Positions 6,297 to 13,222 of a stretch of DNA of 64,000 bases are shown piece after piece (within the stretch, counting starts at the first letter, position 1; each line of letters begins with the position of its first letter). The stretch is from positions 505 through 64,504 of the forward strand of contig CAZNPG010000005.1 of the NCBI GenBank assembly GCA_964575305.1, read 5' to 3'. The position numbers were made by a program, and so were the translations under genes. This DNA comes from an uncultured Gammaproteobacteria bacterium. Lineage in GTDB: Bacteria > Pseudomonadota > Gammaproteobacteria > Magnimaribacterales > TMED112. Below the pieces are notes generated by a model, which was given only the letters and a program-made list of their open reading frames with translations, searched no databases and was not told the origin of the DNA.

Positions 6297-6407
6297 TTTT
6301 TTTTGAATCTAATTGCCAATCCTTTTTAAAAATACTACATTAGAACTGCATTGCATTTGCACCATACTCCATGGTTAAAAAGGAGTCCTTTTAGGATATT
6401 AGTTAAA

Positions 6408-6470
6408 ATCGTTCATCTTTATGTACATAAAGACGGAAGTAGACGAAAGTTGAAGGAACGCGACCGTTAA
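6408..6470 (+). promoter_or_regulatory. Glutamine riboswitch aptamer (glnA RNA motif), copy 1
   Basis: AUCGUUCAUCUUUAUGUACAUAAAGACGGAAGUAGACGAAAGUUGAAGGAACGCGACCGUUAA. The closing helix is CGUUC/GAACG and the internal stem is AUCUUUAUG/CAUAAAGA. The blocks ACGGAAGUAG and GAAGGAACGC are conserved, and there is a small GAAA-capped hairpin. Confidence 0.8.
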
Positions 6471-6483
6471 TCGGATAACGTAA

Positions 6484-6540
6484 ATCGTTCATCTTCGTAT
6501 GAAGACGGAAGTAGGTGAAAGCTGAAGGAACGCGACCGTT
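6484..6540 (+). promoter_or_regulatory. Glutamine riboswitch aptamer (glnA RNA motif), copy 2
   Basis: AUCGUUCAUCUUCGUAUGAAGACGGAAGUAGGUGAAAGCUGAAGGAACGCGACCGUU has the same conserved blocks as copy 1. The stems differ in a pairing-preserving way (AUCUUC/GAAGA; GU-GAAA-GC versus AC-GAAA-GU). It ends 81 nt upstream of the glutamine synthetase start. Confidence 0.8.
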
Positions 6541-6620
6541 AAACCCAGTCGAGTTTAACTTCTATAGTGCTGCAATATAAATGCAAATATATTTTTTTAT
6601 TTTTCTATAGGAGAAAAGAT

Positions 6621-7631
6621 ATGAGTGATATGAAAACGTATGAATACGTCTGGTTAGACGGTTTTAAGCCTGAGCCTTCTCTCAGGAGCAAAGTAAAAGC
6701 AACAGACCTAAGAGGTACTGATAAAAGTGAGGCAAACGATAGCATGCCACCAAAATGGTCTTTTGATGGGTCCTCTACACAACAAGCAGAGGGTGGTAGT
6801 TCAGATTGTCTTTTGATACCAGTTCAAGTATATGAAAACCCTACGAACCCAGATCATTTAGTGATGTGTGAAGTCTTGGCTGCTGATAGTTCTGTTCACC
6901 CATCTAACTCTAGAGCTGCTGCAGCTAAAGTAGCTACAGATGAGTGGTGGTTTGGTTTTGAGCAGGAGTACTTTTTTACTAATCCCGATGGCTCTCCGCT
7001 TGGATGGGAAGATGGTGAACCAAGACCTCAAGGTGATTACTACTGTGGTGTTGGTGCAGATAACGTAGCAGGACGTGAAATATCAGAAATGCATCTGCAA
7101 GCATGTCTTGATGCAGGCATAAATCTCACAGGAACAAATGCAGAAGTAGCTTTAGGCCAATGGGAATATCAATGTTTTGGCAAAGGAATAAAGGCTGGTG
7201 ATGATCTCTGGATGAGTAGGTACTTATTGTACAAAATAGCTGAAGAATATGGCGTTGGCGTAAACATCCACCCAAAACCAAAAAAGGGCGATTGGAATGG
7301 CTCAGGAATGCATGCAAATTTCTCTAATGAAGAAATGAGAACTGCTGGTTCTAAAGAACTTTTCCATGCAATGTGCGATAAATTAGGTGAGGTTCATGAA
7401 GAAGGTATCGCATCGTATGGTTCAGACAATGACCAAAGATTAACAGGCTTGCATGAGACTCAAAAGATTACTGAGTTTTCATATGGTGTTAGTGACAGAG
7501 GAGCTAGTATCAGGATACCTGTGTATACAGTTGAGCATGACTGGAATGGTTATTTAGAAGATAGAAGGCCAGCATCTAATGCAGATCCTTATAAAATTAT
7601 TGCCCACATTGTAGGCACATTAACTAAATAG
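6621..7631 (+). CDS. glnII: Glutamine synthetase type II (eukaryote-like GSII)
   Basis: MSDMKTYEYVWLDG..WSFDGSSTQQAEGGSSDCLL..WWFGFEQEYFF..NAEVALGQWEYQ..HPKP..GDWNGSGMHANFS..RLTG.HET..F..GVSDRGASIRIP; ~336 aa. I chose the start at the ATG at 6621, which is preceded by TAGGAGAAAAGAT. The track's GTG at 6567 would add an implausible leader. Confidence 0.9.
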   Translation: MSDMKTYEYVWLDGFKPEPSLRSKVKATDLRGTDKSEANDSMPPKWSFDGSSTQQAEGGSSDCLLIPVQVYENPTNPDHLVMCEVLAADSSVHPSNSRAAAAKVATDEWWFGFEQEYFFTNPDGSPLGWEDGEPRPQGDYYCGVGADNVAGREISEMHLQACLDAGINLTGTNAEVALGQWEYQCFGKGIKAGDDLWMSRYLLYKIAEEYGVGVNIHPKPKKGDWNGSGMHANFSNEEMRTAGSKELFHAMCDKLGEVHEEGIASYGSDNDQRLTGLHETQKITEFSYGVSDRGASIRIPVYTVEHDWNGYLEDRRPASNADPYKIIAHIVGTLTK

Positions 7632-7638
7632 CTTATTT

Positions 7639-7665
7639 AGCCTCTCACTTAACTAGTGGGAGGCT
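7639..7665 (+). terminator. Hairpin downstream of glnII (candidate intrinsic terminator)
   Basis: AGCCUCUCAC-UUAACUA-GUGGGAGGCU (10 bp including one G-U), followed by UUCUUCUU. It overlaps the 3' coding end of the convergent yibN-like gene. Confidence 0.45.
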
Positions 7666-8049
7666 TTCTTCTTGCCAAGATATAAGACCGTCCTTTAACA
7701 GATAAACTTCCTCTATTCCCAGCTTTAAAAGTTCTACTCCAGCACCTCCAGCATCTAAACCATTTTCTGTAATTACTACAACTGCTTTTCCTTTATTTAA
7801 GAGATGTTCCTGTTTTCCAAAAGAGTCTTTTTGAACGTTAATTGAGCCGTGAATATGACCAGATTCAAAAGAGTCTTTTTGCCTTATATCGACAAAAATT
7901 GCATCATTCTTGTTGATCAGGTCTACAGCTTGGGAAGGAGTTATTCTTTTTCCGCCTTTACTTGTCTCATACATGTACCAAAAAACAAAGGTAATTAACA
8001 ACGGTACAGATAAGTACCACCTAGAAATTAAAAAATCGAAGAAATCCAT
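7645..8049 (-). CDS. yibN: YibN-like inner-membrane rhodanese-domain protein (no active-site Cys)
   Basis: N-terminal TM helix plus a rhodanese fold ([51 protein letters not shown]). It is collinear with E. coli YibN, including the C-terminal LPLV. The catalytic loop position carries Thr, not Cys. Confidence 0.7.
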
Positions 8050-13146: not shown

Positions 13147-13222
13147 GCCCAGATAGCTCAGTTGGTAGAGCAAAGGACTGAAAATCCTTGTGTCGGTAGT
13201 TCGATTCTACCTCTGGGCACCA
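13147..13222 (+). tRNA. tRNA-Phe (GAA)
   Basis: GCCCAGATAGCTCAGTTGGTAGAGCAAAGGACTGAAAATCCTTGTGTCGGTAGTTCGATTCTACCTCTGGGCACCA folds as a cloverleaf by eye. The anticodon loop is CUGAAAA, CCA is encoded, and it is near-identical in layout to E. coli tRNA-Phe. Confidence 0.97.

Follow-up and report, generated by a model that had tools for sequence, protein, structure and literature searches.

How would an RNA that senses glutamine control the gene for glutamine synthesis itself? This question is raised by the 64,000-nt stretch of DNA analysed here (the window), in which two RNA elements follow each other between positions 6408 and 6536 upstream of a gene for glutamine synthetase (GS) of type II (GSII). 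Judged by their sequence, they are almost certainly a tandem type-1 glutamine riboswitch in the 5′ untranslated region (UTR) of the GSII mRNA of a SAR86 bacterium. The class, the glnA RNA, was named for its association with GS genes, with PII, GOGAT and ammonium transporters as further targets, and tandem copies were noted early on in cyanobacteria and marine metagenomes (Weinberg et al. 2010, PMC2864571); because class, tandem form and marine GS link have all been published since 2010, the riboswitch call itself is not new. In 2018, however, the aptamers in RefSeq 80 were found in cyanobacterial genomes only, and both the glutamine effect and the taxonomic affiliation of the marine copies upstream of glnA were stated to be unknown (Klaehn et al. 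2018, PMC6212724).

Two glutamine aptamers in series upstream of a GSII gene

We scanned the window with Infernal against all of Rfam 15 (4227 families) and obtained three matches above gathering score: one tRNA and two full-model matches to RF01739, each spanning model positions 1-53 of 53. Aptamer 1 scored 64.4 bits (E 5.8e-12 over the whole window) and aptamer 2 scored 66.5 bits (E 1.5e-12), nearly twice the gathering score of 35, so that the tandem glnA RNA proposed by a first-pass annotation now rests on two independent covariance-model matches. The type-2 glutamine riboswitch (RF01704, Downstream-peptide), which that annotation had named for parallel scanning, has a related ligand-binding core and is also marine, but the window's copies are not members, since their 14.4 and 16.6 bits fall well short of the gathering score of 33.

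6408-6464, + strand: aptamer 1, type 1 (RF01739), 64.4 bits against a gathering score of 35
6465-6480, + strand: linker hairpin CGUUA (6465-6469)/UAACG (6476-6480) with loop AUCGGA, from the sequence and the minimum free energy (MFE) fold of the inter-aptamer segment
6484-6536, + strand: aptamer 2, type 1 (RF01739), with helix P1 at 6486-6490/6528-6532, junction GAAG at 6524-6527 and linchpin-position C at 6533
6621-7631 including the stop, + strand: GSII, 336 aa, from its open reading frame (ORF), Pfam, NCBIfam and a structure match

The two ~55-nt copies are identical in the core blocks AUCGUUCAUC, AGACGGAAGUAG and UGAAGGAACGCG, and both contain the junction ACGGAAGUA together with GAACGC, including a C at the linchpin position (6461 and 6533). 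For what this residue does we follow a review of the structure by Ren et al., according to which the J2/3 junction becomes ordered and P1 gains stability once glutamine is bound, while a G from the junction enters a linchpin pair with the C 3′ of P1 (PMC11477058); in this leader the ligand-locked strand corresponds to GAAG-GAACG-C. A repeat finder returned direct repeats of 44 nt (91% identity, 6427-6470/6499-6542) and 14 nt (100% identity, 6406-6419/6482-6495) with a period of 72-76 nt. The copies differ in ways that keep pairing intact, P2 being UCUUUAUG/CAUAAAGA in copy 1 and UCUUC/GAAGA in copy 2, and the GAAA-capped P3 being GAC/GUU and GGU/GCU, respectively. These differences, the shared blocks, the 3′ extension GACCGUUAA of both copies (6462-6470 and 6534-6542) and the linker hairpin CGUUA-AUCGGA-UAACG can all be read in the sequence as first described. 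The original spacing of 14 nt holds when counted from the end of the shared GACCGUUAA; by Rfam coordinates the linker is 19 nt (6465-6483), holding just the 5-bp hairpin, which is kept in most tandem relatives, and no gene or terminator lies between the aptamers. The arrangement is a tandem riboswitch, with two complete aptamers of the same class in series on one leader and one platform, 85-213 nt upstream of the GSII start codon on the same strand.

Comparison of 38 aligned homologues revealed three pairs changed on both sides in P2 and likewise three in P3, with P1 invariant; taken jointly, P1, P2, P3 and a downstream helix, H1 (below), are paired in 99.7% of cells. That the aptamers are relics or chance look-alikes without a regulatory role is accordingly a reading to which we assign almost no weight: it is opposed by E-values of ~1e-12 for each copy, by the compensatory changes in P2 and P3, by a leader conserved across SAR86 species whose GSII proteins are just ~80% identical, and by 99.6-99.9% identity of the leader on metagenome contigs from different samples. 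We found no evidence in its favour, and the conservation data already contradict it.

The downstream gene starts at an ATG at 6621, 81 nt past position 6540 as originally given, preceded by a Shine-Dalgarno (SD) sequence GGAG at 6610-6613. Its assignment to GSII was likewise borne out: the protein contains both Gln-synt_N and Gln-synt_C (Pfam), its best NCBIfam model is GlnII (370.5 bits, E 7.5e-111, below the equivalog cut-off of 500), and residues 7-333 align with the Streptomyces GSII structure 4BAX (E 1.9e-91), followed among PDB entries by plant, yeast and human GS. By these sequence comparisons the enzyme is a divergent GSII. The identical protein, with the same neighbour genes, occurs in >200 blocks of marine metagenome assemblies, including TARA, and no ORF of at least 50 aa overlaps 6297-6566 on either strand. 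SAR86 genomes are collinear with the window, which has 89% nucleotide identity over 6.7 kb to SAR86 MED-G166, ~80% to two metagenome-assembled genomes (MAGs) labelled 'Gammaproteobacteria' and 68-76% to many SAR86 single-cell genomes. Because of this synteny and identity the host is a member of the SAR86 clade, which sharpens the gammaproteobacterial origin suspected earlier.

A conserved platform and a helix enclosing the leader

What lies between the second aptamer and the start codon determines how glutamine binding could be read out. Here, sequence conservation reveals an expression platform of ~85 nt, new in this work, that is shared upstream of SAR86 genes for GSII, type I GS (GSI), TonB-dependent receptors and porin-like proteins. 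Its modules were collected by a metagenome scan in which a complete upstream aptamer was required, yielding 47 unique sequences of which 38 were aligned; most of the 120 matches to the pattern were chance (soil and gut samples) and were removed. The parts of the leader are as follows.

6313-6341, + strand: candidate sigma-70 promoter, TTGCCA (6313-6318), 17-nt spacer, TACATT (6336-6341), from a consensus scan
6347-6361, + strand: closing helix 5′ strands U1, UGCAUU (6347-6352), and U2, UUGCA (6357-6361), from RNAfold, RNAalifold and covariation
6366-6396, + strand: hairpins ACUCC (6366-6370)/GGAGU (6382-6386) and UCCU (6386-6389)/AGGA (6393-6396), from RNAalifold
6401-6407, + strand: conserved AGUUAAA just 5′ of aptamer 1, a candidate alternative partner of UUUAACU (6554-6560)
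6538-6559, + strand: helix H1, GUUAAAC (6538-6544)/GUUUAAC (6553-6559) with loop CCAGUCGA, from alignment and RNAalifold
6559-6567, + strand: CUUC plus UAUAG, the proposed anti-SD, its CUUC also complementary to aptamer GAAG (6524-6527)
6571-6585, + strand: closing helix 3′ strands D1, UGCAA (6571-6575), and D2, AAUGCA (6580-6585), from RNAfold, RNAalifold and covariation
6605-6613, + strand: CUAUA plus the SD GGAG (6610-6613), complementary to 6559-6567
7639-7665, + strand: GC-rich terminator-like hairpin after the GS gene, from a terminator scan

In its general form this long platform reads GAACG-C-N2-5-(C/U)GUUAAAC-N3-8-CGA-GUUU(A/G)(A/G)(C/U)UUC, followed by a few bases, (C)CUGCA(G/A), 6-8 bases, AUGCA, AU-rich sequence and the SD; it is common to GSII, GSI, TonB-receptor and some Gcw_chp genes, and is the type that the window carries. 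H1 is paired in 100% of cells across 38 distinct sequences and is never broken; its variation comprises 16 one-sided changes at 4 of 7 pairs, all to G.U, and its motif has no second match in the window (0.03 matches expected, 1 found). The competing hairpin first suggested, in which CGUU of the 3′ extension pairs with AACG, is possible (4 bp, kept as UGUU in one class), but the better-supported partner of CGUUAAAC is the downstream GUUUAAC of H1. The sequence AGUUAAA stands 5′ of the aptamer in 50 of 50 leaders carrying the long platform, and GUUAAA occurs four times in the leader against a single occurrence of its complement UUUAAC.

Downstream of H1, the CUUC (or UUUC) tract is invariant among the aligned modules, and no tract other than CUUC and, in most relatives, UCCU could pair with the SD. 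In the window a 9-bp helix could form between CUUCUAUAG (6559-6567) and CUAUAGGAG (6605-6613). The L083 lineage would instead pair GCUUCUAAA with UUUAGGAGC, likewise over 9 bp, and in some lineages the anti-SD flank covaries with the SD flank (permutation p = 0.05). The platform segment CGAGUUUAACUUC is in addition an imperfect complement of the ligand-locked aptamer strand.

When ten full single-aptamer leaders were folded together by RNAalifold without guidance, P2, P3, H1 and the upstream CUCC/GGAG hairpin were recovered, along with a long-range pairing of UGCAUU/AAUGCA and UUGC/GCAG that encloses the whole riboswitch; in this fold the aptamer's AGGA pairs with platform UCCU in place of P1. 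As a whole the leader is no more stable than shuffled sequences (MFE z = -0.58), so stability alone is no evidence. The small leader hairpins vary by compensatory UUCC/GGAA and CCCC/GGGG exchanges in relatives, UUCC/GGAA being a variant of CUCC/GGAG; the ACUCC/GGAGU hairpin bears a near-invariant loop AUGGUUAAAAA and also includes an SD-like AAGGAG. A 7-codon ORF in this hairpin region (6371-6394, MVKKESF) was considered and dropped, since it is not kept as an ORF (L099 lacks the ATG, L023 the stop). Finally, the aptamer 5′ strand AUCGUUCAU (6408-6416, 6484-6492) can form 9 bp, including G.U, with 6621-6629, the start and two further codons AUGAGUGAU; this complementarity is kept as AUGGGUGAU in another lineage and is absent from the GSI, receptor and porin-like genes sharing the platform, and it may be coincidence.

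The enclosing, or closing, helix was predicted by RNAfold for the window and independently by RNAalifold for the ten leaders, and its two strands change together between gene classes: UGCAUU with AAUGCA in the window, GCAUUUU with AAAAUGC in the Gcw_chp class, GCAUUUUU with AAAAAUGC in GSI and L213, and UUGUGAUUU with AAAUUACAA or AAAUUGCAA in TonB receptors. Cognate duplexes average -6.9 kcal/mol against -5.4 kcal/mol for non-cognate ones, a mean reached in 0 of 20,000 permutations, although this test is inflated by relatedness and the real two-sided change is that of the TonB-receptor class. The same class decided against a local hairpin UGCA/UGCA (6571-6574/6582-6585), which its UUACA breaks while sparing the upstream pairing; the long-range helix is preferred for that reason. 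We also observed the closing helix in L014, L109, L153, L213 and others, and found no published description of it in the glutamine-riboswitch and SAR86 literature searched.

Both promoter-like hexamers are position-conserved in SAR86 GSII leaders, and every gene class has a -10-like hexamer 6-8 nt upstream of the closing helix's 5′ strand. This constant distance suggests that the 5′ strand is probably the mRNA 5′ end, so that the helix, on sequence grounds, probably joins the 5′ end of the message to the stretch that directly follows the platform, with both aptamers inside. Closing helix and SD helix cross topologically; they may coexist as a pseudoknot or compete.

The TGCA-rich elements at 6347-6361 and 6571-6585 could instead be DNA operators of a nitrogen-responsive factor that, alone or together with the riboswitch, accounts for most of the regulation. 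Their strong conservation, their partly palindromic form (CTGCAG, ATGCAT in relatives) and the overlap of one of them with the predicted transcription start would suit this explanation. Both elements change together with base pairs preserved, however (GCAUUUUU with AAAAAUGC, UUGUGAUUU with AAAUUACAA), and paired changes between classes are predicted by an RNA helix and not by a shared operator, which leaves the operator improbable. Motifs resembling NtrC and sigma-54 sites in TGCACCAT...ATGGT, along with the TGCA repeats, were inspected by eye; their spacing did not fit the consensus, and we make no claim for them.

Candidate direction of the switch

The first-pass annotation had called the regulatory polarity not obvious, and Klaehn et al. 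2018 say the same of marine glnA-associated copies (PMC6212724), while also considering negative regulation reasonable. We regard OFF polarity as probable; that it takes the form of a translational OFF switch needing both aptamers occupied is narrowly favoured; and the particular three-part relay set out below is tentative, a little short of an even chance.

According to this relay, in the absence of glutamine the junction and P1 would be unlocked, and the 3′ half of aptamer 2, GAAG-GAAC-G-CG (6524-6534), would pair with platform CG-A-GUUU-AA-CUUC (6550-6562); this alternative pairing (Alt) would hold the CUUC tract, leaving the SD free and GS made. With glutamine, P1 would be stabilised, the junction recruited and the linchpin pair formed with the C just 3′ of P1, releasing the platform segment; the released GUUUAAC would be caught by GUUAAAC to form H1, and CUUCUAUAG would pair with CUAUAGGAG, covering the SD and lowering translation. 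A further step would couple the aptamers, in that the 3′ half of an empty aptamer 1 would pair with the 5′ half of aptamer 2 (strand swap) and block its folding, so that repression would require both sites to be filled and the response would be steeper. The long-range helix, joining the mRNA 5′ end to the segment just after the platform, would close the whole domain.

Several results are consistent with such a course. The Alt segment CGAGUUUxxCUUC can pair with GAAGGAACGC in 96% of cells (Alt comprising GAAG/CUUC, GAAC/GUUU and C/G), and in thermodynamic modelling the Alt conformer is dominant in the unconstrained ensemble of GSII leaders; for WIN/L001 at 20 °C the free, Alt-enforced and P1-locked folds come to -43.1, -43.0 and -34.3 kcal/mol. 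The strand locked by glutamine (P1 and the linchpin C) is exactly the strand that Alt needs free, which favours the ligand logic. Modelled SD-unpaired probability is 0.00 with locked aptamers and 0.34-0.46 in Alt for L083, L204 and L148, and exposure is lower locked than in Alt in 36 of 52 leaders. As for coupling, in the MFE fold of 6452-6496 (-14.2 kcal/mol at 20 °C) the strands are swapped and the helix they form stacks on the linker hairpin, compared with -13.3 kcal/mol for aptamer 2 folded alone; with a strand swap of similar energy available, aptamer 2 folding would, in these models, depend on aptamer 1 occupancy. Physiology also points to OFF: the genes behind the long platform serve nitrogen acquisition, for which repression by glutamine is expected, and an ON-style platform sits on small proteins.

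That ON-style platform is short, GAACG-CAUCU-UUUUAAAAA-GGAGAUG-UU-AUG, and precedes genes for a 54-aa protein and for small phage proteins; the aptamer's 3′ tail, including the linchpin-position C, pairs with an AGAUG that overlaps the SD. Klaehn et al. put forward the same layout to explain glutamine activation of cyanobacterial gifB (PMC6212724), and its presence in the clade bears on whether the window's GSII leader could be an ON switch, in which glutamine opens the SD and raises GSII translation. Such a switch would take the 9-bp CUUCUAUAG/CUAUAGGAG helix as its default, to be disrupted by the folded aptamers or the closed leader. The SD helix is indeed predicted as the default in the window and L083 lineages, all characterised members of the class are ON switches (PMC6212724), and one Pelagibacter amt paralog with a riboswitch-like leader, which may or may not hold this aptamer, is made only under N-replete conditions at constant mRNA level (PMC3870248). 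An ON switch would, however, mean positive feedback on glutamine synthesis and would have glutamine induce the nitrogen-scavenging genes that share the platform (TonB receptor, porin-like protein, GSI). Among the platform elements we found none that is complementary to the anti-SD and freed by ligand binding, and the same clade has the separate short ON-design platform on other genes; two platform designs in one clade suggest two polarities. We therefore judge an ON switch unlikely for the window, though better placed than a read-out at the level of the transcript.

The latter would regulate H1 and the closing helix through premature termination (intrinsic or Rho-dependent) or through decay via the 5′ end held in the closing helix. 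It would account for the pairing of the probable 5′-terminal mRNA sequence and for a platform core that is conserved across genes with differing SD-proximal sequences, and in some Gcw_chp platforms (L128, L057, L089) an H1-like hairpin is extended by G-C pairs and followed by UUUUU. In the window, by contrast, H1 is followed by UUCUAUAG and not by a U run. The terminator scan that detected the hairpin at 7639-7665, an example of the terminator style in this genome, detected nothing comparable within the GSII leader, and an AU-rich, C-poor leader is, as a general judgement, a poor Rho loading site. The Gcw_chp hairpin is moreover unstable in related variants, and the free fold extends rather than replaces it. 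Overall, a transcript-level read-out appears rather improbable. We dropped an attempt to derive polarity from the terminator-type Gcw_chp variant, as its hairpin is stable only in the three loci named and no clean antiterminator logic emerged.

A number of findings also weigh against the translational OFF relay. The Alt helix is invariant, with zero covariation, and is thus allowed rather than demonstrated; 15 of 36 sequences leave one inner G-C pair open. Covariation of the anti-SD flank is of marginal significance, and flank pairing fails where A's follow CUUC, those lineages having UCCU or CUCCU. In the window itself modelled SD exposure comes to 0.19 in either conformer, since each time the SD is masked by a local U-tract hairpin; for the L083 lineage, GAAG:CUUC loses to the 9-bp SD helix even when the fold is unconstrained. 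The platform segment has two more GUUAAA partners, at 6401-6407 and in the upstream hairpin loop GUUAAAAA, which sequence does not distinguish. Experimentally characterised class members are ON switches only (PMC6212724), all of them cyanobacterial and acting on a GS-inactivating factor, and all polarity support for the SAR86 copies is computational. Two attempts were abandoned along the way: plain SD-accessibility modelling (locked, P1 forbidden or free) gave mixed values with spurious pairing of the aptamer 5′ strand to the start-codon region, and an inner Alt extension CGAC/GUCG shifted register between lineages. When SD accessibility was remodelled with the coding sequence left out and Alt imposed explicitly as a constraint, the direction was as expected in some lineages, not in the window.

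Relatives in marine bacteria and known systems

We scanned one genome per GTDB species with an exact pattern of the aptamer core and obtained at least 120 loci, labelled here by record titles. Among the matches listed, 68 were Alphaproteobacteria, mostly SAR11-type single cells but also Pelagibacteraceae, HIMB59, SAR116/Puniceispirillales and Rhodobacterales; 31 belonged to the SAR86 cluster, 15 to Gammaproteobacteria, and two each to SAR92 and Pseudomonadota, with one Crocinitomicaceae and one unclassified record. Cyanobacteria were absent from these 120, which we attribute to scan order. The aptamer is thus very common in marine Alpha- and Gammaproteobacteria, so a glutamine riboswitch in a marine heterotroph is ordinary in today's data and the initial surprise at a non-cyanobacterial host is outdated. 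Copies also occur in pelagiphage-like genomes (PMC9004378), and the main SAR86 comparative paper does not mention riboswitches (PMC11582366). Counted among the matches listed, the downstream genes are:

Amt transporters: 77, alphaproteobacterial
GS (GSII in SAR86, GSI in three loci): 19, mostly SAR86
Gcw_chp outer-membrane proteins: 10, SAR86
TonB-dependent receptors: 6, SAR86
DUF4278 proteins: 6, mixed hosts
54-aa protein: 5, SAR86
Circularly permuted ATP-grasp proteins: 3, SAR86
Small phage proteins: 3, phage contigs

Within this set, 16 SAR86 species representatives have the riboswitch before GSII, seven with tandem and nine with single aptamers, and the proximal aptamer ends 78-89 nt before the ATG in all 16. 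The closest relative, L012 (SAR86 MED-G166, 7768-7818, 89% identity), carries a single aptamer that runs straight into the same platform. Close relatives thus differ by the gain or loss of one 72-76-nt unit, with recombination between the repeats as the presumed cause, and this fits riboswitch-containing deletions in SAR86 populations: RF01739 is listed, without comment, within deletions in SAR86 MAGs in a 2025 long-read study (PMC12379486).

Other gene classes show further leader designs. Genes for DUF4278, 54-aa and small phage proteins follow tandem aptamers in L033, L079 and L093 (SAR86), L063 (SAR92), L129 (Crocinitomicaceae), L042, L037, L052, L072, L095, L123 and the phage contigs L007-L009. 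DUF4278 is the family of the cyanobacterial GS-inactivating factor IF17, and GS control by small proteins that inhibit it is said to be found in cyanobacteria alone; given this supposed uniqueness, the heterotroph copies deserve a look. In three SAR86 Gcw_chp loci (L016, L022, L056), three aptamers and a GSI-like platform ending in GGAGCAUUUUU without a start codon are separated from the porin-like gene by ~100 nt more leader, which looks like the fusion of a GSI leader upstream of another gene. ATP-grasp genes in L026, L041 and L073 (SAR86) follow a single aptamer and a pyrimidine-rich spacer AUCUUAUCUUAUUC with no recognisable SD, which by its sequence is a third kind of platform. The SAR11-type Amt genes (77 among the matches listed, L013-L127) often stand two in a row ~2 kb apart, each with a tandem riboswitch; their second aptamer is UCGGAAGUA, enclosed by a helix CAUGC...GCAUG and followed by a conserved UUUCC, in two platform variants. 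Pelagibacter proteomics has reported two amt paralogs with opposite nitrogen responses (PMC3870248). Compared with the window, these amt leaders share the type-1 tandem, the nitrogen-acquisition gene, the streamlined marine heterotroph and a pyrimidine tract (UUUCC) after aptamer 2, but differ in platform sequence, in the CAUGC...GCAUG helix and in lacking the GUUAAAC/GUUUAAC helix. Elsewhere in the window, the tRNA gene from the Rfam scan lies at 13147-13219 (+ strand, 73.6 bits), its anticodon loop CUGAAAA, read from the alignment, suggesting tRNA-Phe (GAA).

In a direct parallel, the type-1 riboswitch upstream of gifB (encoding IF17) in Synechocystis sp. PCC 6803 has an ON function, with a mode of action that Klaehn et al. 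2018 called unclear (PMC6212724). It shares with the window P1/P2/P3, the ACGGAAGUA junction, GAAGGAACGC, the linchpin-position C and a 5′ UTR location within the GS regulatory circuit. The two differ in host (cyanobacterium versus heterotrophic SAR86), in target (GS-inactivating factor versus the type II enzyme itself), in layout (one aptamer with a short RBS-pairing tail versus two with a long platform of H1, CUUC tract and closing helix) and probably in polarity. The marine metagenome glnA RNAs (PMC2864571) very probably come from the same population, with marine origin, GS association and tandem copies in common; those reads came without a description of host or platform, both of which the window supplies.

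The standard tandem example is the glycine riboswitch, in which two aptamers for one ligand serve a single platform. The window likewise has two like aptamers in series before one platform, but the coupling proposed here is a P1/P2 strand swap, with no sign of tertiary docking between the aptamers. For tandem glnA RNAs a steeper, more digital response has been invoked (Weinberg et al., PMC2864571); the tandem is nonetheless optional, because close relatives (L012, L083 and others) work with a single aptamer.

Collectively, these results place the 'marine glnA' copies in SAR86 with a conserved platform, probably of opposite polarity to the characterised examples, and address the host question of 2018: GS-linked copies belong to SAR86 and amt-linked copies to SAR11-type Alphaproteobacteria. 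They would also allow, with a likelihood we place just under even, a single SAR86 glutamine-riboswitch regulon in which one aptamer has two opposite read-outs; the long OFF platform might then serve GSII, GSI, TonB-receptor and porin-like genes and the short ON platform small DUF4278/IF17-like proteins, and the pyrimidine tract might shuttle between the aptamer's SD-like GAAGGA and the real SD, both points being as tentative as the regulon itself. The conserved platform with its defined helices is a concrete model that can be tested by mutation, and a cultured SAR86 isolate makes experiments feasible (PMC11582366). If the OFF reading is true, the tandem leader before GSII in the window would be the first glutamine riboswitch defined as OFF-type, exerting direct feedback on GS at the RNA level, and one aptamer class would be wired both ways within a single streamlined genome. 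In these dominant bacteria of the surface ocean, RNA would then sense glutamine directly and set the levels of GS, transporter and receptor.

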